NCBI GenBank assembly: GCA_963663275.1
Contig: OY760183.1
Span: forward strand, 480,001 to 544,000
DNA: 64,000 bases
Direction: 5' to 3'
Source: Chloroflexota bacterium
Lineage (GTDB): Bacteria; Chloroflexota; UBA11872; VXOZ01
Part shown: piece by piece, positions 40,616 through 54,889 of the stretch
Numbering within the stretch: position 1 is the first letter of the stretch
How the letters are laid out: the number at the start of each line of letters is the position of its first letter
The notes under the pieces: model-generated
What the model was told of the DNA's origin: nothing
Seen by the model: the letters and a program-made list of their open reading frames with translations, nothing else
Databases searched by the model: none
Position numbers and translations under genes: made by a program

Positions 40616-42502
40616 GTGTCGATTCCGGTGGAAGCCGCCCGCGAGCGCATGTCCGGCGTCCCCTTGCTGCCCGGGTGCTACCTCTTTCGCGATCGCAAGG
40701 GCGCGGTGCTCTACGTGGGCAAAGCCAAGCTGCTGCGCAATCGCGTGCGGTCGTACTTCGGCCGCCAGGACCGCATGCCCTGGAAGACCCGCAGCATGGT
40801 GGAAAACGCCGCCACGCTGGAGTACATCATCACCGACACGGAGATCGAGGCGCTGGTGCTGGAGAGCAATCTCATCAAGCACCACCGCCCGCGCTACAAC
40901 GTCGTCTTGCGCGACGACAAGTCGTTTCTCTACCTCAAAGTCACCCTGAACGAACGCTACCCCCGCGTGTTGACAACCCGCCGCATCCTGGACGACGGCG
41001 CGCAATACTATGGTCCCTACACCAGCGCCTACAGCCTGCGCGACACCCTGAACCTGCTCAACCGGCTCTTTCCCTACCGGTCGTGCGCCTTGGACATGGA
41101 GAAGGAGTACGAACGCCCCTGCTTGGACTACCACATCAACCGCTGCGCCGGACCGTGCGTCGGCGCGGTGACCCAGGAGGGCTACGGCGGCATCATCGAG
41201 CAGGTCACGCGCTTCTTGGAGGGCCGGCCGGGCGACGTAATCCAGAATCTCCGCGCCGACATGCGGGAAGCGTCGGACGCGCTGGAGTTCGAACGCGCGG
41301 CGGCAATGCGCGACCGCATCCGGGCGGTTGAGCGCGTCCTGGAACGCCAAAAAATCACAAACATTAGGCAAGGGGACATCGACGTCATCGGCTTCGCCCG
41401 CGAGCACGACGAGGCCTGCGTGCAGGTCTTCAGCATTCGCGGCGGCCACCTGCTGGGACGCGAAAACTTCATCCTGGAGCACGTGTCCGACGAGGAAGAC
41501 CGGGACGTGATCCGGGACTTCCTGCAGCAGTTCTATGGCCGCAGCATGCAGATTCCCCAGGCGCTCTTCCTGCCGGTAGGCATTCGCGGCGCGGAGTTGC
41601 TGCGCGCGTGGCTGCGGGAGCGGCGCGGCGGCAGCGTGACGCTGAGTGTGCCCAAGATCGGCGAGAAGCGCCGGCTGGTGGAGTTGGCGGGAAACAACGC
41701 CCGCCAGGGCCTGCAGGACCACCGCCTGCGGCACCTGGACAGCCAGCAGCGGGCGCAGGTGGCGCTGACCGAACTGGCCGACACGCTGGATCTGGACGCG
41801 CCGCCGGTGCGCATCGAGTGCTACGACATTTCGAACATACAAGGCGCGTACACGGTGGGCGCGATGGCGGTGTTCGTTGCCGGTCTGCCGAGCACCGGCG
41901 ACTACCGCCGCTTCCGCATCAACTCCGTAGACGGCCCCAACGACTACGCCAGCTTGCAGGAGATGCTGACCCGGCGGCTGAAACGCCTCAGCGAGCAGCG
42001 CGCGGAGGAGGAGACGGGAAAAGAAGAGAAGGCTGCGGACGGGCAGGTGGATGCGGACGCCCTGGACTCATGGGGCATGAAGCCCGATTTGCTCGTGATC
42101 GACGGCGGCAAGGGGCAACTCAACGCGGTGCTGGAGGTGCTGGCGAACCTGGCCCTGCACGATATTCCGGCTCTGGGTCTGGCCAAGCAGCGCGAGGAGA
42201 TTTTTCTCCCCGGCGCGCCCCGGCCGATTACCCTGGAGGAACGGTCCGAGGCGCGCAAACTGCTGCAACGCATCCGCGACGAGGCCCACCGCTTCGCGAT
42301 TACCTACCACCGCACGGTGCGCACCAAGCACACCCTCGGTTCCCTGCTCGATAAAGTGCCCGGCATTGGCGTCAAGCGGAAAGTGGCGCTGCTGCAGCAC
42401 TTTGGCAGCGTGGACGCGATCCGGGAGGCGTCGGTCGAGGTCCTGGCCGGCGCGCCCAAGATGAACCGCTCCGTGGCGGAGAAGGTGAAGGAACACCTGT
42501 AA
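40616..42502 (+). CDS. uvrC: Excinuclease ABC subunit C
   Basis: YVGKAK.LRNRV.SY (GIY-YIG), ECYDISN, IDGGKGQL, RDEAHRFA, HhH. Confidence 0.97.
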   Translation: MSIPVEAARERMSGVPLLPGCYLFRDRKGAVLYVGKAKLLRNRVRSYFGRQDRMPWKTRSMVENAATLEYIITDTEIEALVLESNLIKHHRPRYNVVLRDDKSFLYLKVTLNERYPRVLTTRRILDDGAQYYGPYTSAYSLRDTLNLLNRLFPYRSCALDMEKEYERPCLDYHINRCAGPCVGAVTQEGYGGIIEQVTRFLEGRPGDVIQNLRADMREASDALEFERAAAMRDRIRAVERVLERQKITNIRQGDIDVIGFAREHDEACVQVFSIRGGHLLGRENFILEHVSDEEDRDVIRDFLQQFYGRSMQIPQALFLPVGIRGAELLRAWLRERRGGSVTLSVPKIGEKRRLVELAGNNARQGLQDHRLRHLDSQQRAQVALTELADTLDLDAPPVRIECYDISNIQGAYTVGAMAVFVAGLPSTGDYRRFRINSVDGPNDYASLQEMLTRRLKRLSEQRAEEETGKEEKAADGQVDADALDSWGMKPDLLVIDGGKGQLNAVLEVLANLALHDIPALGLAKQREEIFLPGAPRPITLEERSEARKLLQRIRDEAHRFAITYHRTVRTKHTLGSLLDKVPGIGVKRKVALLQHFGSVDAIREASVEVLAGAPKMNRSVAEKVKEHL

Positions 42503-42532
42503 TTGCCCCCTCACCCTAACCCTCTCCCCCAG

Positions 42533-42672
42533 GAGACCTTTGCAAAGCTCCGTCATTCCGGCGAAAGCCGGAATCCAGAGGGCTTTTGCAACGAAACATA
42601 GCATGATGTCAAGCCATTTCACCCCCATCCCAACCTTCCCCCTCGATGGGGAAGGGGTTATGCAAATGGCTC
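42533..42672. mobile_element. MITE type A (140 bp)
   Basis: TIRs with CCCAG duplication, inserted in a CCCTCTCC..GGAGAGGG hairpin. Confidence 0.85.
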
Positions 42673-42881
42673 CCCAGGGAGAGGGAATCGGAGCAGCGCC
42701 GGATTGGCGCGACCATCCGTTTGTGTGTGGTCGACCTGTTCGTGCGTGGCCGACCTGTCTGTGCGTGGCCGTCCGTTCGTGGTGAGCCTGTCGAACCATG
42801 AACGGACGGTGGCGCGGACGGAAACCAACCGCTCTGCGCACAGGTTACCTTCAGGCGGTAGGGGCACGACATGTCGTGCCC

Positions 42882-44677: not shown

Positions 44678-46177
44678 TCACTCCGCCGCGAAGTCGCGCC
44701 GGACGCGCTCCCCAAAGTCGTGCGCTTCCTCAGTGTACGTGGCGAAAGGATCCGGCATCTCCAGCACCCGGCCGCGCGCGGCGATCGCCTTCCAATCCAG
44801 CACGTAGGGAATCACGTCCCAGCTATCGTTGGCGGCCACGTCCTGCCAATCGTCCACGTAGTCGTAGGCCAGGAAGAAGTAGCGGCGGTCCCACATCAGG
44901 TTTTCCAGGTTCGTGCGCAGGTCCTGCCAGGGGATGGCCGTATCCACGCCGGCCGCGGCCAGGGCCCTTAGCGCCGCGCCGCGGCCGTGGGCGCGGGTAT
45001 CGGCAGGCGGGCGGGTTTCCGCCGCGTAGACGGCCTCATCCTCCGCCCAGTAGAGGTTGCGCTGCCGCTTTGCCAGCACGTCGAAGAGGCTGATCGACGG
45101 GTCGATCTGGTGATAGGAGAGATCCAGCTTAATCAGGTCCGGGTCGGTCCAGGCCGTGCCGGCGCCGGCAAAGCGCTTGAGTTGCTCGTGCTTGGTCACC
45201 CAATCCAGGTAGCCGTCCAGCCGCGCCGGATCGCGCTCCAGTTCGTCCAACACCCAGGCCCAGTTCTCCAGCGTCCACACCGTATCCGCGTCGCGCCCGC
45301 CAAAGCGGCGTTCGGCTTCGCGCAGGTAGCGGCGCTGCACCTCGGTGGCGGGTATGTATTCGTCCGTTTCCGTGCCCACGGTCCACTTGCCGCCGGTGGT
45401 GCCGGCAATGCGGCGCAAGTCGCGCACCGGATCGGCCAGCGCGAGTTGGGGGCTCCAGCCTTGCTCCAGCAGTTGGGCGGCCAGCGCGGTGGCGCCGATC
45501 TTCAACGCGGTGGTGAACTCGGAACGATTCACGTCGCCCACGATCACGTGCAGGCGCCGGTACTCCCGTCCCGCCAGCGGCTCGTCGCGCAGATTGATGA
45601 TCGGCCGGCCGCCAAACCGCACCCGGTGGCTCACGTCCAGCGTGACGAACTGCGCCCGCTGCGAGAGCGCGAACGCGGCCGGCGTGTCCTTGCCGCGCGG
45701 CAACAGGCAGCCGGCCCCGGCGTAGATCTGGCGGGTGACGAGAAACGGCAACATGCCGTCCACCAGTTCGCGGTCGTACGGGCTCTGGCGGATGCAGTAG
45801 TTCTCGTGGTAGCCGAACGTATGGCCGAAGTAGTCGGTGTTGTTCTTGACGAAGAAGGCCTGGGACTCAAGCTCGGCGGCGCGCACGGCCTCGTTGATGA
45901 TGTGCTCGCCGGCGCGTTCGTGGGCCACCACGTCGGTCAGGGTGCGGCACTCGGCGGTGGCGTGCTCCAGGTGGCCGAGGTCGAGATACATGCGCCCGCC
46001 GTTGAAGAGAAAGCCGCCGTTCCCCGGCGCTTCCCCCCATTCCCGGGGCGGCGGGTCGATCAGGCCGTGGCGGCACCCGCGAAAGATGGCGTCCTTGACC
46101 AATACCGCCGCCCGCACGGGCTGCACGCTGCCCACGCAGCCATACTCGATCTCTGTGCCGAACAGTGCGTCATCCAT
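44678..46177 (-). CDS. pafA: Pup/UBact--protein ligase (PafA family)
   Basis: GTEIEYG, GNGGFLFNGGRMYLD.GHLE, KNNTD..GYHENY, RDEP, RRLHVIVGD, DLSYH, TRA, DW; no Dop loop. Confidence 0.9.
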   Translation of the reverse strand: MDDALFGTEIEYGCVGSVQPVRAAVLVKDAIFRGCRHGLIDPPPREWGEAPGNGGFLFNGGRMYLDLGHLEHATAECRTLTDVVAHERAGEHIINEAVRAAELESQAFFVKNNTDYFGHTFGYHENYCIRQSPYDRELVDGMLPFLVTRQIYAGAGCLLPRGKDTPAAFALSQRAQFVTLDVSHRVRFGGRPIINLRDEPLAGREYRRLHVIVGDVNRSEFTTALKIGATALAAQLLEQGWSPQLALADPVRDLRRIAGTTGGKWTVGTETDEYIPATEVQRRYLREAERRFGGRDADTVWTLENWAWVLDELERDPARLDGYLDWVTKHEQLKRFAGAGTAWTDPDLIKLDLSYHQIDPSISLFDVLAKRQRNLYWAEDEAVYAAETRPPADTRAHGRGAALRALAAAGVDTAIPWQDLRTNLENLMWDRRYFFLAYDYVDDWQDVAANDSWDVIPYVLDWKAIAARGRVLEMPDPFATYTEEAHDFGERVRRDFAAE

Positions 46178-46204
46178 GCCTGCTCTACCCAAAGAAGCGC
46201 GCGG

Positions 46205-46441
46205 CTACTCGCCGCCGGGCTGCGGCGTGGGATCGGGCACTTCCCGAATGATGCGCCGGATTTCCTCGTCCAGATCGTCGGTTTCGGTCTTTTCCGGCGC
46301 TTCCGTAGGCGATTTCGTCGGCGTTTCCGTCGGCGCTTCGGTGCCCGCCCGCGCCGGACGGAACCCGCGTTCCGCCGCGGCCTCACGCGCCGCGCCGGCA
46401 GCGAATCCTCGCCACGGTCCGTTTTCAGCATACCACGTCAC
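46205..46441 (-). CDS. pup: Pup-like ubiquitin-analogue modifier, 78 aa, C-terminal GGE
   Basis: GTG start overlapping the dop stop (GTGA) after AAGGAGG; EKTETDDLDEEI core resembles Pup; ends QPGGE; lies between dop and pafA. Confidence 0.82.
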   Translation of the reverse strand: MTWYAENGPWRGFAAGAAREAAAERGFRPARAGTEAPTETPTKSPTEAPEKTETDDLDEEIRRIIREVPDPTPQPGGE

Positions 46442-48051
46442 GTGCCGCCTCCTTGTTGTATTGCGTGGTGGAGTTCCTCGATAGTCTGGCACGCATCCAC
46501 CAACGCTTGTTGTCGAGCCACCGTCTCGCCCCAGAGTTCGGGCAGGGCCAGGGTGAAGGGCGTGCCGTTGTGTTGAAACGTGATCGAGCCCCACTCCATG
46601 GCGCTGACGTGGGGCGCGAATTTGGCCAGGCAGGCCGCCCGGACGCCGGCGCGGGTGCCCGCGGGCGCGGCGGTTTCCGCGTGCGCGATGTCCGCGTCGC
46701 TCACGATGCGCCGCATCCGGCCGGCGCGAACGAGCATGTGGTAGAGGCTCACCGCCGGATCAACCAGGTGGTAGGCCAGATCGAGCCGCAGCGCCGTCGG
46801 GTCTTCCCAATCGACGCGCGCGCCGCCGCCTTCGTCGGAGACGCCGCCTTCGTCGGAGACGCCGCCTTCGTCGGAGACGCCCATCTGGGCGAAGAGCGCC
46901 AGTTTGGCCGCCCAGTCCGCGCGGTCGCGCAGGCGCGCCGGGTTCGAGTCCAGCAGGTCGAGAACCGCGCCCCACTCGTCCAGCACCCAATCGGTTTCGG
47001 CGTCGCGGCCCCGGAAGCGCAGCACCGCCTCCCAATAGCGGCGCTGCACGTCCACCGCGCGGATGGTCGTGCCGTCGTCCAGCGCCAGCGGCCGCTTGAA
47101 CTCCAGATCGCGTGAGACTGTTTGCAGCGCCTGCACCGGGCGCCGCAGCCGCAGTCGCGGCGCCGCGCCTTGCTCTACCAGGTCGAGCATCAGGGCCGTG
47201 GCCCCCACGCGCAGGGCCGTGGCGAACTCGCTGCAATTGGCGTCGCCGATGATCACGTGCAGGCGGCGGTATTTCTCCGCGTTGGCGTGGGGCTCGTCGC
47301 GGGTATTGAATATGGGGCGCTGGGTGGTGGTATTAATGCCCACCTCGGTCTCGAAGAAGTCCGCCCGTTGGCTGAGCTGGAAACCGCCGCTGCGCCCGCC
47401 TGCCGAATCGCGCGTCTCGTACGAACGTGGCCGTTCGTGCGAACCCGGCGCTTCGTGCGCCGCCTTGCCCGCTCCCGCGTAGATCTGGCGGGTAACGAAG
47501 AAGGGAATGCACGCGCCGATCAGGTCGTGCAGCGGCACGGCGCGGCTCACCAGGTAGTTCTCGTGGCAGCCGTAACTGCGCCCGTGGTAGTCGGTGTTGT
47601 TCTTGACCAGGCGCACCCGGTCCGCTTGGCCGCCGGCGGCGTTGCGCGCCTGCTGCGCCCGCCAGGCCACGCGCTCGCCGGCCTTGTCCTGGGCAACCAG
47701 GTCGTGCAGGGAGAGACAGGCGTCCGTGCAGTATTCCGGGTGATTGTGATCATTGTAGAAGCGCGCGCCGTTGGGCAGCACGGTGTCGGCCAGGAGTTCC
47801 TGCCGGCTGAGCCGCTTGCTCTTGGCATTGTTGCCGCGCAGGTCGTGAGGATCGTGGTCCAGGCGCGCGACCCGCGTGCCGCGCAGGTCTACCCGCGGAT
47901 CCTCGGCGGTGTAGTCCCAGCCGCGAAAGACCGCGCCCGCCAGCGGCGCGCCGCGCACGAGCATGGCGGCCTCGTAGGCAAAGTCCACCGCCTGCGCGCC
48001 ATTAGCGCATATCATGCCGTACTCGGTTTCGATCCCCACGGGTCGATTCAT
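46438..48051 (-). CDS. dop: Depupylase/deamidase (Dop family)
   Basis: GIETEYG, Dop-loop WDYTAEDP..DLRG, NGARFYNDHNHPEY, SYGCHENY, RDEPHA, RRLHVIIGDAN. Confidence 0.9.
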   Translation of the reverse strand: MNRPVGIETEYGMICANGAQAVDFAYEAAMLVRGAPLAGAVFRGWDYTAEDPRVDLRGTRVARLDHDPHDLRGNNAKSKRLSRQELLADTVLPNGARFYNDHNHPEYCTDACLSLHDLVAQDKAGERVAWRAQQARNAAGGQADRVRLVKNNTDYHGRSYGCHENYLVSRAVPLHDLIGACIPFFVTRQIYAGAGKAAHEAPGSHERPRSYETRDSAGGRSGGFQLSQRADFFETEVGINTTTQRPIFNTRDEPHANAEKYRRLHVIIGDANCSEFATALRVGATALMLDLVEQGAAPRLRLRRPVQALQTVSRDLEFKRPLALDDGTTIRAVDVQRRYWEAVLRFRGRDAETDWVLDEWGAVLDLLDSNPARLRDRADWAAKLALFAQMGVSDEGGVSDEGGVSDEGGGARVDWEDPTALRLDLAYHLVDPAVSLYHMLVRAGRMRRIVSDADIAHAETAAPAGTRAGVRAACLAKFAPHVSAMEWGSITFQHNGTPFTLALPELWGETVARQQALVDACQTIEELHHAIQQGGGT

Positions 48052-48136
48052 CGTTACCCTTCGGTACCGCGTTACCCTTCGGTACCGTGCTGCCTCTCGG
48101 TACCGTGCTGCCTCTCGGTACCGTGCTGCCTCTCGG
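48052..48136. repeat. 18-bp tandem repeat x~5 abutting the dop start
   Basis: CGTTACCCTTCGGTACCG x2, then TGCTGCCTCTCGGTACCG x~3. Confidence 0.88.
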
Positions 48137-48624: not shown

Positions 48625-49596
48625 ATGACCCTGCGAGAACTCTACGACACCGCCATCGAAATCGGCCGCGAGGTCGACCCGCGCGGGCGCGAGGCGCTGG
48701 ACCGCCAGCTTGAGGAGCGGCGGCAAGAGTACGCCGCGCTGCCGGAATGGCGCAAACCCTACTACGACCGGGAGCGGTTCAACAATCCCTACGGCGACGT
48801 GCGCATCGTCAACGGTCCCGAGGACACCGAACTCGATACGATTTTGTTAGGCATCAACATCTGGACGCAGGAACTGCTGCTGGCCGACCACCTGCGCAGC
48901 GGCGGCGCGCGGGTGGACGCGGTGATTTCCCACCACACCAACAGCATCGGCGTGCCGGCGGACACCCTGATCTATGACTCCGTGCCGTATCTGGTAGACC
49001 TGCTGGCAAGCGCCGGGGTGGCCCGCGCGGACGCCAAGCCGCACGTCGAGGCCATGATGAACGAGCGTTGGCTCGCCGCCGAAGACTTCAACCGCATCGG
49101 CAGGGACACGGCGGAGTTGCTCGGTTTTCCGTTGGCCTGCATCCATACCCCGGCGGACTTTCACCACGGCATCGGCGTGCGCGGCGCGATCGAGGCCGCG
49201 CGGGCCGCAACGGTAGGCGACGTGGTGGAGGCGCTGCTGGCCCTGCCGGAGTTCCAGGGCGCGGCCCGCATCGGGGCCATTCCGCGCATCCTGGCCGGCG
49301 ACGCCGCGCAACCCGCGGGCCGCATCTTCCACCAGGACGGCGGCGGCTGGCTCTTTCCGGCGGACGTGATTCCCCTGCTCAAGGAGGCCGGCGTCGGCAC
49401 GTTCGTCACCATCGGCTGTTCGCCCGCCCACCAGCGGCAAGCCCGGGAACTCGGCATGAACTGGGTGCGCATGCCCCACGGCGCGTGCGACAACGTGGGC
49501 CTCAACCTCCTGCTCGACAAAGTGGAGCAACGCCTCGGCCCGCTGAACGTGATACCGTGCAACTACTTCGAACGGATCAAGCGCAACGGCAACTAA
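48625..49596 (+). CDS. NIF3 (NGG1p-interacting factor 3)-like protein, copy 1
   Basis: DPRG, FNNPYGD.RI, SHH, CIHTPAD, H...DN.GLNLLLD. Confidence 0.75.
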   Translation: MTLRELYDTAIEIGREVDPRGREALDRQLEERRQEYAALPEWRKPYYDRERFNNPYGDVRIVNGPEDTELDTILLGINIWTQELLLADHLRSGGARVDAVISHHTNSIGVPADTLIYDSVPYLVDLLASAGVARADAKPHVEAMMNERWLAAEDFNRIGRDTAELLGFPLACIHTPADFHHGIGVRGAIEAARAATVGDVVEALLALPEFQGAARIGAIPRILAGDAAQPAGRIFHQDGGGWLFPADVIPLLKEAGVGTFVTIGCSPAHQRQARELGMNWVRMPHGACDNVGLNLLLDKVEQRLGPLNVIPCNYFERIKRNGN

Positions 49597-49847
49597 TTCC
49601 AACCTGGCGCGGGGGCTTGTATCTGACGTTGCCCCATTGGGGCCTGCCCCCGACGTTGCCGCATCACCGTAGCGCGGGGGCTCGTCCCCCGCACATGGAT
49701 ATACTCGACGCCACGTAGCGCGGGGGCTTGTCCCCCGCTCTTCGTAAGAGCAAACTTCCGTCTCCGTTGGCGGACGAACCAAACCGGGTTTGCCCTCGCC
49801 CCGGCCCTCACCCGGGCGGGCAACAGGGGCAGATCGGAAAGCGTGAC

Positions 49848-50867
49848 ATGGCAACCTTACGCGCTCTCTATGACACCTCCATCGCGATCGGCCGAGAGCT
49901 TGACCCCAGAGGCCAGGCGGCCATCCAGCGCCAGTTGCGGCAGCGCCGCGACGAGTACGCCGCGCTGCCCGCCTGGCAGCAGGCGTTCTACGACCGGGAG
50001 CGCTTTCGCAATCCCTATGGCGACGTGCGCATCGTCCACGGCCCGGACGACACGCCCATTCACACCGCGTTGGTGGGCATCAACCTGCACGTGCCGGAGA
50101 TGCTGCTGGGGGAGGCGCTTGCGTCCAGAGGCGTCAAAATCGACGCTTTCCTGTCCCACCATACGAACAGCGTCGGCATTTCCGCCTCGCTGGTGGCCGA
50201 CTTCATGGAGATCAACGCCGACTACCTCATCTGGGAAGGCGTGCCGCCGGACGCGGCGCGGGCGTGCATCGCCGGCTACATGGCGGAACGCCTGCAAGCG
50301 CACGAAGACGTGCACCGCATCGGACCCGACACGGCCGCGCTGCTGGGCTATCCGCTCGCCTGCATCCACACGCCGGTCGACCTGGCGCACCGCCAGTACA
50401 TCAACGCGCTCTTTGCGCGGGAGAAGCCGCCGACCGTCGGCGCAATCGTCGAACTCATGCTGACGCTGCCGGAGATGCAAGAAGCCGCGCACATCGGCGC
50501 CATGCCCCGCATCATGGTTGGCGAGCCGGCGCAGCCCGCCGGACGCATCCACGCCAAGTTCGCCGGCGGCTACGCCTATCCGCCCGGCGCTTTTCCGCTG
50601 CTGGCGCGGGCCGGCGTGAACACCGTGGTGCAGGTTTCGGCGCAAGCGGCCACCGTTGACGCCTGCCGCGCGCACGGCATCGCCCTGGTGCGCCTGCCCC
50701 ACTACGCCACGGACAACATCGGCCAGAACCTGCTGCTGGACGAACTCATGCGCCGCCTGGAGCCGTTCGACGTGATTCCCTGCAACTACTTTGGCCGGGT
50801 AGACCGCGCGGGAGACCTGGCGGCGTTGCTGGCTGCGGGCCCTATCATCAGAACCCTGGGGGGCTGA
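49848..50867 (+). CDS. NIF3-like protein, copy 2
   Basis: Same motifs as copy 1 (DPRG, NPYGD, SHH, CIHTP.D, H..DN.G.NLLLD). Confidence 0.75.
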   Translation: MATLRALYDTSIAIGRELDPRGQAAIQRQLRQRRDEYAALPAWQQAFYDRERFRNPYGDVRIVHGPDDTPIHTALVGINLHVPEMLLGEALASRGVKIDAFLSHHTNSVGISASLVADFMEINADYLIWEGVPPDAARACIAGYMAERLQAHEDVHRIGPDTAALLGYPLACIHTPVDLAHRQYINALFAREKPPTVGAIVELMLTLPEMQEAAHIGAMPRIMVGEPAQPAGRIHAKFAGGYAYPPGAFPLLARAGVNTVVQVSAQAATVDACRAHGIALVRLPHYATDNIGQNLLLDELMRRLEPFDVIPCNYFGRVDRAGDLAALLAAGPIIRTLGG

Positions 50868-53421: not shown

Positions 53422-53610
53422 TCACTGCATACGCACGGGCTTGATCTTGCCCTCTACCTGTACAAGCCGCACTCTCACCTTCTCTTTAGCCACCGCCTTT
53501 TCCGGCTTTACAGTGTCACTGGAACTGCCACTGCGCCATCCATCACGGGGCAGCCGTTCCCTGTCCTTGACTTGTCTTTCTACGCCATTTCGGTCGCTGT
53601 CATACATCAT
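53422..53610 (-). CDS. Small basic hypothetical protein (62 aa) overlapping the protease stop
   Basis: ATG overlaps the 3' end of the upstream gene; same lower-GC segment. Confidence 0.45.
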   Translation of the reverse strand: MMYDSDRNGVERQVKDRERLPRDGWRSGSSSDTVKPEKAVAKEKVRVRLVQVEGKIKPVRMQ

Positions 53611-54622
53611 CGCCAAATCCTGTGTGCCGATGCTGCAACTGCGGCTCATTCAGAACGTCGAAGCCTCCTCCTTTCGTCACTATAGCAACGTGAGTCCGTC
53701 CACCAACTGTTGCCACTCCGGGCGCAAACCTTGACTTGCCGGATTGAAGATTCACCAAGAACGCAACAAAGTCTATCGCACTCTGCAACGGCAAGTTCCC
53801 ATAGGAAAACTCAACCTTCATGTCGTCCCATGGAGGACTCACCTCCAGTTTCAATGGTAACACAGTATCAACACCAGAAGGCAACGTGGCGCCAAGTTGA
53901 GCAAGCACGTCGTCGAGAATCTTCGCCATTGCGCCTGTCATCTGCTGATAGTGCTCGTCAATCATCTGCTCGAGATAACGCTCAATCGCCATTCTCAAAG
54001 TGCTGTCATAGCCTCGTATCAACCGCTCAATGCCATCTGCCTGACCATCCCATGCAATACCGAAACTACCTTTGGTCAATTGCTCGTAAACCTTGTTGGC
54101 GCGAACGTCCACACGAAATACTGACGGCAGTTCGTCCATAGCGCCATAGCCCCCAATGAGAAAGTGCGGACCGTCCCAGTATTCTTCTGGAAGCGATGAG
54201 TCCTTGTAGTGTTCCGTGAATTGCTTCCTCATGAACCGTAAGAATTCGTTGGAGATAGTCTGGACATTGACTAAGGGCTTTTGTTTCTGCTTTTGCTGGC
54301 CAAGAAACTCCTCACTGTAGCTCTTCATCGTCCTATTGTTGAGTCGTGCGACGCCCGCTGTTACCGCAGCCACAGAGGCGCTCCCCTCGTAGAGTTGGAA
54401 CAGCTTTGTAACTCCCGCCCATGCATTAGTGACCACCGGCCGAATTCTAGACGGGTCAAGTGCAACGAGCTTGTGACCATCGCTGCTCTGTAGGGGGTTA
54501 CCTTCTTCGTCCTCGACACCGTCCAACTCGAAAGGATCGATTACATATTCAACACTGCTGGCAATGCTATCACAGCCAAGTACCAGGCCTTCGCTGGTAG
54601 CGAGCGCGATGTTTATAGTCAT
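53600..54622 (-). CDS. Proteasome-beta-like Ntn-hydrolase (Thr protease fold)
   Basis: M-T1-INIALATSEGLVLGC-D17-S, TKLF, FLIGGY, TVGG..HVAIVT; RBS GGAG. Confidence 0.75.
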   Translation of the reverse strand: MTINIALATSEGLVLGCDSIASSVEYVIDPFELDGVEDEEGNPLQSSDGHKLVALDPSRIRPVVTNAWAGVTKLFQLYEGSASVAAVTAGVARLNNRTMKSYSEEFLGQQKQKQKPLVNVQTISNEFLRFMRKQFTEHYKDSSLPEEYWDGPHFLIGGYGAMDELPSVFRVDVRANKVYEQLTKGSFGIAWDGQADGIERLIRGYDSTLRMAIERYLEQMIDEHYQQMTGAMAKILDDVLAQLGATLPSGVDTVLPLKLEVSPPWDDMKVEFSYGNLPLQSAIDFVAFLVNLQSGKSRFAPGVATVGGRTHVAIVTKGGGFDVLNEPQLQHRHTGFGDDV

Positions 54623-54889
54623 GCGTTGCTCCGATACAGTCCGAATCAGCCCAATGAAGCAAGTATACAACTACGCTAGCTGAAAATGAACGCATCACCC
54701 TAGGTCAGCGTTCTTGACCCCTCTAAAGGTTTACAACGCACAAACGGGAAAAGGCTCACACCTATGCGAACTCACAGAGCAGCGACATGTGTCAAGTCTA
54801 GTATCCCAAGACCATAGGCACGAAACTGGTATACTCCTCTCATGAACTTGGACAGTCGCTCTTTCCGTCACCCAGGAGGTTAGTCCACC

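Follow-up and report, generated by a model that had tools for sequence, protein, structure and literature searches.

What is encoded by a short open reading frame (ORF) that sits between two genes of the Pup ligase family in a Chloroflexota bacterium? Pupylation has been treated as a route to the proteasome that is either actinobacterial, with Pup as the tag, or Gram-negative and candidate-phylum, with UBact. The ORF in question has 78 codons and lies in a 64,000-nucleotide stretch of the genome (assembly GCA_963663275.1, contig OY760183.1, positions 480,001 to 544,000), which we call the window; its product is referred to below as the tag. The ORF is a real, strongly conserved and unannotated gene, and we think it probable that its product is a Pup/UBact-type protein tag, intrinsically disordered, that has its own sequence family and forms a three-gene tagging cassette with the flanking Dop-like and PafA-like enzymes. 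Its most likely classification is as a third, uncatalogued kind of bacterial Pup/UBact-type tag.

The tag gene is read from the minus strand, with its codons running from 46441 down to 46208 and its TAG stop at 46205-46207 (Table 1). Residue 1 is a GTG codon, which specifies Met only as an initiator. The peptide quoted in a first-pass annotation of this DNA is indeed encoded in this interval, although the strand needs correcting to minus; the plus strand over 46205..46441 translates to an unrelated peptide. The Gly-Gly-Glu (GGE) terminus that had been proposed is likewise present on the minus strand, directly before the TAG stop. The GTG start shares 4 nt (GTGA) with the TGA stop of the upstream 537-amino-acid (aa) Dop-like gene, an arrangement typical of translational coupling.

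Table 1. Coordinates of the tag cassette and of other features of the window
Feature	Position	Strand	Basis or description
Dop-like depupylase/deamidase gene (putative), 537 aa	46438..48051	minus	Pfam Pup_ligase PF03136, 484.7 bits
Tag gene, 78 codons + TAG stop, GTG start	46205..46441	minus	reading frame and homologue conservation
Conserved C-terminal module of the tag, residues 54-78, TDDLDEEIRRIIREVPDPTPQPGGE	46208..46282	minus	invariant columns in class-wide alignments; synonymous-codon variation with residues unchanged
TxxP repeat linker of the tag, period 12 nt, 3.8 copies	46295..46339	minus	Tandem Repeats Finder
PafA-like ligase gene (putative), 504-aa ORF from TTG 46192	44678..46192	minus	Pfam Pup_ligase PF03136, 361.2 bits
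Aromatic-rich C-terminal segment of the PafA-like protein, ~95 residues	44681-44975		conserved Trp/Tyr/Phe positions
Gap between the tag and PafA-like genes	46193-46204
18-nt tandem repeat inside the Dop-like gene	46824-46881		perfect, 3.2 copies
18-nt short tandem repeats upstream of the Dop-like start	48052-48100		2-2.6 copies
323-aa ORF	48625-49596	plus
379-aa ORF	49728-50867	plus
356-aa ORF	53600-54670	minus

A conserved gene in a three-gene locus

According to the first-pass annotation, a small ORF resembling a modifier lies between genes for a Dop-like and a PafA-like protein, and this holds: both neighbours belong to the Pup_ligase family, with scores (Table 1) above the Pfam cut-off (gathering score) of 25 bits. 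A scan for related loci with the peptide pattern RIIRE[IV]P[DG]P, using one genome per species, gave 89 pattern matches and 70 confirmed loci, all of them titled Chloroflexota, Chloroflexi or Thermoflexus (a Chloroflexota genus). The order dop-like, tag, pafA-like on one strand was found in 70 of 70 loci, a contig end cutting the Dop-like gene in two of them. Each of the 70 also contains an ORF ending PTPQPGG[E/Q]-stop (42 with Glu and 28 with Gln), so that homologous loci devoid of a conserved GG[E/Q] ORF, which the first-pass annotation had named as evidence that would refute it, were not encountered. With the window added, GG[E/Q]-stop was present in 71 of 71 sequences (43 Glu, 28 Gln).

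Within the window's class of Chloroflexota, the tag was detected in 89 of 98 genomes at one copy each. By family, the counts were 16/16, 16/19, 34/38, 9/9 and 13/14, to which the window's own genome is added; the tag was missing from a sixth family, represented by a single genome (G374). In a phylum sample of 401 Chloroflexota genomes, the tag profile matched 45, of which 42 matched strongly and belong to three families within the window's class. The remaining three matches were weak (E value above 7e-4), lay outside these three families and are regarded as noise. Pup_ligase genes were present in 44 of the 401 genomes, namely the same 42, G374 and a genome with a sub-threshold match (G220, 17.5 bits).

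Protein database searches recovered the same family. A word-indexed search covering 5.8 billion proteins yielded 26 candidates, of which 23 were tag homologues of 69-74 aa, all unnamed, and in the alignment of these with the window sequence (24 in all) the C-terminal ~35 residues are nearly invariant, with GGQ instead of GGE in 2 of 24. When 1.84 billion representative proteins were searched exhaustively with a profile (E<=0.001), 24 proteins of 55-100 aa were returned, all of the tag family; 22 of these end in QPGG[E/Q], and the other two look truncated or frameshifted. No usable hit came from a protein language-model atlas. Across the class, tag length varies from 43 to 78 aa and conservation is limited to the last ~25 residues, which read [D/E]L.E..[R/K]RIIRE[I/V]P.PTPQPGG[E/Q].

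Is this conservation a property of the protein or of the underlying DNA? Over the last 20 codons, the 71 tag sequences comprise 68 distinct DNA versions. The segment TPQPGG, which lies outside the pattern used for the scan, is nonetheless unchanged in 71 of 71, with each of its residues encoded by 2-4 synonymous codons. Because the residues are invariant despite this synonymous-codon diversity, strong purifying selection acts on the tag protein and not on the DNA. A decaying remnant or a chance ORF that is functionless at present would fit with the missing partner machinery (Mpa and the 20S proteasome, discussed below) and with the many spurious ORFs of high-GC DNA. Such a reading is scarcely credible, however, given that the tag is kept in most genomes of the class, that both enzymes are intact beside it in 70 of 70 loci, and that its conserved residues persist through nearly as many DNA versions as there are sequences.

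In the conserved C-terminal module of the window tag (residues 54-78), an amphipathic stretch of acidic and basic residues is followed by a Pro-rich tail and then by the terminal Gly-Gly-Glu. Upstream of the module, the TxxP repeats claimed in the first-pass annotation are real (Table 1), and the window tag has one TxxP copy more than its genus relatives (78 aa versus 74 aa). The aromatic/basic N-terminal extension claimed with them is present in the window's genus, to which the "MTWYA" extension is confined, but is not conserved across the class. An AlphaFold 2 (AF2) prediction of the tag monomer gave no stable fold (mean predicted local distance difference test [pLDDT] score, 57.7; predicted template modeling [pTM] score, 0.11), and this low-confidence model is consistent with an intrinsically disordered protein.

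The spacer that follows the tag gene varies within the genus. Relatives have 245-670 bp of lower-GC DNA between the tag and the PafA-like gene, and the gap in the window is only 12-27 nt. Within this spacer, copies of a palindromic repeat (GATGGATTCCCGC...GCGGGAATGACGG) are found in at least three relatives (L039:10223-10854, L045:10223-10768, and L049:10223-10892), and a similar repeat translation (IPAFAGMT) occurs in the window near 42068-42841.

Two divergent enzymes and a candidate tagging cycle

If the small protein is a tag, do its neighbours look like the enzymes that would attach and remove it? In Hecht et al. 2020 (PMC7947786; section 6 and Table 1), Leu, an inserted residue, Gly and Ala-Thr-Ala near the catalytic Asp are listed as specific to PafA, and Val/His/Ala and Ser/Thr/Pro at the same positions as specific to Dop. 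At the catalytic-site strand, the Dop-like protein of the window reads N-D-H and, like Dop, lacks the inserted residue; at the positions of that published table it keeps His (11) and Thr (14) and differs at 9, 12, 13 and 15. It aligns over its full length, Dop-loop region included, with the solved Dop structure 5lrt at 325.9 bits, versus 208.6 bits for PafA 4b0t. On NCBIfam it scores 413.5 bits with the Dop model TIGR03688 (cut-off 492.3), versus 328.9 with PafA.

The PafA-like protein carries the complementary signatures. Its Dop loop is absent, and it has L-D-L-G...A-T-A around the catalytic Asp, so that only the Ser at position 12 is missing; among 22 PafA-like sequences there is no variation in the GxExE motif or the catalytic Asp. 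It scores 216.7 bits against solved PafA 4b0t and 205.6 bits against Dop, and on NCBIfam 288.5 bits with the PafA model TIGR03686 (cut-off 551.3) versus 260 with Dop. The gene probably starts not at the TTG of the longest ORF but at ATG 46177, giving a protein of 499 aa, because a Met is aligned there in at least 90% of 22 homologues. Chloroflexi enzymes are labelled "proteasome accessory factor PafA2 family protein" by NCBI. Both flanking enzymes are divergent, and we infer their exact activities because their scores lie below the curated equivalog cut-offs of NCBIfam.

Protein structure prediction bears on a different reading, in which the small protein is not conjugated to proteins at all and serves instead as a substrate, precursor or regulator of enzymes of the carboxylate-amine ligase type, for example, through joining of its C-terminal Glu to a small amine or as an enzyme inhibitor or chaperone. 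The superfamily does include small-molecule ligases, and among the lower-ranking fold matches to the AF2 model of the PafA-like protein (pLDDT, 70.7; pTM, 0.79) are YbdK, gamma-glutamylcysteine ligases and glutamine synthetases. Neither a reader (Mpa) nor a proteasome is present, and conservation of the small protein is confined to its enzyme-binding end, both of which would suit this reading. However, the best fold match of the model is the PafA-Pup complex 4bjr (E value, 8.8e-29; template modeling score, 0.75), and PafA/Dop structures are matched at 1e-26 to 1e-29 as compared with 1e-7 or worse for small-molecule ligases. Furthermore, one enzyme has the Dop-type and the other the PafA-type signature, the pairing that marks protein pupylation, and the alternation of GGE with GGQ in a protein predicted to be disordered is a hallmark of Pup-type tags. 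We therefore regard a nonconjugated role as improbable.

With protein tagging as the preferred reading, the cycle that we infer is modelled on PafA/Dop chemistry as covered in Hecht et al. 2020 (PMC7947786). The PafA-like ligase would bind the conserved C-terminal module, use ATP to phosphorylate the carboxylate on the side chain of the terminal Glu and join the activated Glu to a lysine of a target protein, and the Dop-like enzyme would hydrolyse the tag-lysine bond. In species whose tag ends in Gln, the Dop-like enzyme would first deamidate Gln to Glu. The details of PafA/Dop ligation chemistry on which this scheme draws are general background. The E/Q alternation at the tag end is the pattern that would be expected of a tag served by a deamidase. 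In the window genome, the tag would be made ready to ligate (GGE), and the Dop-like enzyme would be needed for removal only. The first-pass annotation had described Dop as acting only as an eraser; by this reasoning the description may hold for the window genome, but it does not extend to the family, where deamidation would be part of the repertoire because 28 of 71 tags end in GGQ.

A family-specific feature of the ligase may have to do with the Pro-rich tail of the tag: its C-terminal end has 11 positions at which Trp, Tyr or Phe is kept in 19-22 of 22 sequences. The PafA of G374 lacks part of this aromatic-rich segment (44-residue gap), which is thus partly an insertion. It is our speculation that the Pro-rich tail of the tag is held by this segment.

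The Dop-like gene has features of its own. A perfect 18-nt tandem repeat inside it encodes GVSDEG three times and explains much of the length of the protein (537 aa versus 504 aa in most genus relatives), and other 18-nt repeats lie directly upstream of its start (Table 1).

Relation to Pup and UBact

Does the tag belong to a family that is already catalogued? The window tag gave no match to the Pup or UBact models in Pfam (E<=1) or NCBIfam. The expectation of the first-pass annotation that Pup and UBact profiles would miss it was thus borne out, and with the same libraries the UBact of G374 scored 79.2 bits on PF20513 and 77.2 bits on NF033388. Several results weigh against assigning the small protein to the Pup/UBact type. 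None of 22 family members matches PF05639 (Pup) or PF20513 (UBact) at E<=10, and the tag-family profile finds 0 PDB chains at E<=10 in a library that includes the PafA-Pup fusion entry 4bjr. An hhalign comparison of the tag family with an alignment of 36 UBact sequences was not significant (probability 0.5%, E value 0.11, 11 columns). Both enzymes score under the NCBIfam equivalog cut-offs, and searches with Mpa and 20S models identified no reader or effector of the tag. Among the sequencing runs listed for the locus there was no RNA run; some of the DNA runs carry the label sponge metagenome, a label that does not establish habitat.

Compared with Pup, the tag is likewise a small protein, disordered in Pup and predicted to be so here, that ends in Gly-Gly-Glu/Gln with an acidic stretch before the end, and it is likewise encoded directly after dop with a PafA-type ligase alongside. 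It differs in giving no match to the Pup profiles (PF05639/TIGR03687), in the Pro-rich tail P.PTPQPGG[E/Q] that forms its last 10 residues, and in an N-terminal half that is not conserved. The actinobacterial system, moreover, comprises PafA, Dop, Mpa/ARC and the 20S proteasome, whereas the tag-bearing genomes have no Mpa and 20S matches. The "Pup-like core" of the first-pass annotation found no statistical support; what weak collinear similarity there is (5.8 bits or less) is to UBact and not to Pup. Also proposed there were a by-eye alignment with mycobacterial Pup and a possible replacement, by PDPTPQP, of the second of Pup's two ligase-binding helices.

UBact shares with the tag its place after dop, a similar length, a Pro-rich N-terminal part, a G[E/Q] end and a basic-hydrophobic stretch (RRMRRV in UBact and RRIIRE in the tag). 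A hidden Markov model of the 36 UBact sequences, run with filters off, aligned collinearly with the tags, covering their Pro-rich part as well as the helix ("tkeLLrrMRRV" on "eeDLgekvRRI"), with scores of up to 5.8 bits, and stopped at RRV/RRI; hhalign picked the same 11 columns (TDDLDEEIRRI on TKELLRRMRRV). Beyond this point the two differ outright over the last 10-14 residues: RYRQR is invariant before the terminal G[E/Q] in the UBact alignment, in which the end is R-Q-R-[S/T]-G-[E/Q], whereas the tag family ends in TPQPGG[E/Q] and is missed by UBact models. The loci differ as well, with mpa-dop-UBact-prcB-prcA-pafA on the one side and no mpa, prcB or prcA at the tag locus (70 of 70 relatives) on the other. 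The weak collinearity is a hint of common ancestry, not a demonstration of it.

The tag could, then, be a member of the UBact lineage by descent, such that Mpa and the proteasome were lost from an ancestral Mpa-Dop-UBact-PrcB-PrcA-PafA system and the end of its tag, the last ~12 residues, was remodelled from ...DPDQARRYRQR[S/T]G[E/Q] to ...P.PTPQPGG[E/Q]. This proposal concerns origin and classification and is compatible with the tagging mechanism set out above. One pointer to it is G374, which belongs to the same class and encodes, on one strand, an Mpa-like ATPase (TIGR03689, 453 bits), Dop (481 bits), UBact (73 aa, ending RYRQRSGE), PrcB, PrcA and PafA; its family is the only one of six without the new tag. 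With UBact in G374 and the tag in the other families, the two systems replace each other. The collinear alignment of the UBact profile points the same way, as does the Dop-like enzyme, for which a Chthoniobacterales Dop (441 bits) and a PafA2-family protein of Nitrospira (430 bits) are closer matches than the solved Dop of actinobacteria. Its identity to the Dop of G374 is 44%. Set against this are the nonsignificant hhalign result, a comparison with the C-terminal tag alignment alone that returned nothing, and the absence from the tag of the R[S/T]G[E/Q] end that defines UBact.

Phylogenetic trees were built from 53 sequences, with Actinobacteria not included, and rooted on the PafA-like clade (FastTree, and IQ-TREE in fast mode with the Shimodaira-Hasegawa-like approximate likelihood-ratio test [SH-aLRT]). 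The Dop-like proteins of tag cassettes form one clade, as do the PafA-like proteins (support 1.0 and SH-aLRT 100 for each). The cassette Dop-like clade groups first with the Chthoniobacterales/Nitrospira set (FastTree, 0.968; SH-aLRT, 100), and the Dop of G374 falls outside this grouping; it is therefore not the closest relative of the cassette Dop, and direct descent within the class is not shown. Because actinobacterial sequences are not in them, the trees do not discriminate between a Pup-type and a UBact-type origin. Taking these observations together, we consider descent from UBact possible but doubtful.

Alternatively, the tag may represent a third independent Pup-type family whose tagging cycle needs neither a proteasome nor an Mpa-type unfoldase and whose ligase recognises one short amphipathic helix together with a polyproline-like tail (P.PTPQPGG). 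We put this fuller proposal forward tentatively and consider it, as a whole, less likely than not.

G374 also encodes two more, lone PafA-like paralogues (L121:5075-6550, minus strand, and L122:5048-6628, plus strand; 398.6 and 393.4 bits on PF03136). Next to these two paralogues, no small ORF was seen that would be convincing as a tag.

A tag in genomes without Mpa and 20S matches

What would the tag be for, if not for delivery to a proteasome? The window's genome (3.53 Mb, one contig, 99.57% complete) gave no Pup profile match at E<=10, with Corynebacterium glutamicum as a control that matched over the cut-off, and its best score with the Mpa model pup_AAA was 147.5 bits, versus a cut-off of 504.75 bits. 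Among the 98 genomes of the class, G374 was the only one matched by the bacterial 20S beta model, and pup_AAA at E<=1e-60 matched only in G374 (453 bits) and G441 (221 bits). Some of these genomes are incomplete, so that the proteasome and Mpa negatives are not proof of absence, and many are single contigs rated 94-99% complete.

One member of the Proteasome family (PF00227) does occur in the window's own genome, as a lone 265-aa ORF (45.9 bits; L003:1198-1995, C1:900963-901757) that adjoins a 144-aa ORF of unknown function. It was considered as a conserved partner protease and rejected, because it is present in only 4 of 98 class genomes; this distribution marks it as an accessory gene, not as a pair of 20S subunits. 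The 356-aa ORF of the window (Table 1) has an N terminus that by eye resembles an N-terminal nucleophile (Ntn) hydrolase or proteasome-type start (TINIALATSEGLVLGCDS); it gave no Pfam or NCBIfam match and is kept only in the closest relative, locus L038.

Other neighbours were likewise dismissed as parts of the system. A solute-binding protein, OMP decarboxylase, two NIF3-like ORFs, the 356-aa ORF and a symporter are conserved beside the cassette in 1 of 70 loci (L038). The 323-aa and 379-aa ORFs, which are divergently oriented upstream of the Dop-like gene and also kept only in L038, seem to be paralogous; neither gave a significant Pfam family, the best being DUF34/NIF3 at an E value of 0.11 on one of them.

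With the 20S proteasome and Mpa/ARC missing, and with conservation restricted to its presumed enzyme-binding end, the tag probably does not serve as a degradation signal for the proteasome. It is more likely to act as a regulatory mark that can be reversed, or as a handle used by some other machine. Corynebacterial pupylation offers a parallel, in that the tag and its enzymes occur there without a 20S proteasome, pointing to a non-degradative or proteasome-independent role, with the ARC/Mpa ATPase and canonical Pup retained. The tag cassettes described here share with it the combination of tagging enzymes and tag without 20S and differ in that their genomes are also without the ATPase and in that the tag is of another family.

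Full-text literature searches, judged by title and abstract, found no paper describing pupylation in Chloroflexi or Chloroflexota, and the tag carried no name in any source searched. The holders of Dop/PafA named in Hecht et al. 2020 (PMC7947786) are Actinobacteria, Nitrospirae, NC10, Armatimonadetes, Verrucomicrobia, Nitrospinae, Firmicutes, Proteobacteria and Planctomycetes; the string "Chloroflex" occurs 0 times in that article, whose supplementary alignments may contain further taxa. Since current models do not name the tag family, genome annotation leaves the tag blank, and the motif RIIRE[I/V]P.PTPQPGG[E/Q]-stop provides the basis for a family model.

In sum, a whole class of Chloroflexota keeps a predicted writer, a predicted eraser and a tag and yet has no proteasome or Mpa, G374 aside, which makes it a natural case for asking what role Pup-type tagging plays where degradation by the proteasome is not an option. 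The tag may also embody a second, very different solution to the problem of how a ligase grips its tag. Should the reading as a third independent family prove true, tagging in this Chloroflexota class, its sponge-associated lineages included, would be a purely regulatory, ubiquitin-like signalling system.

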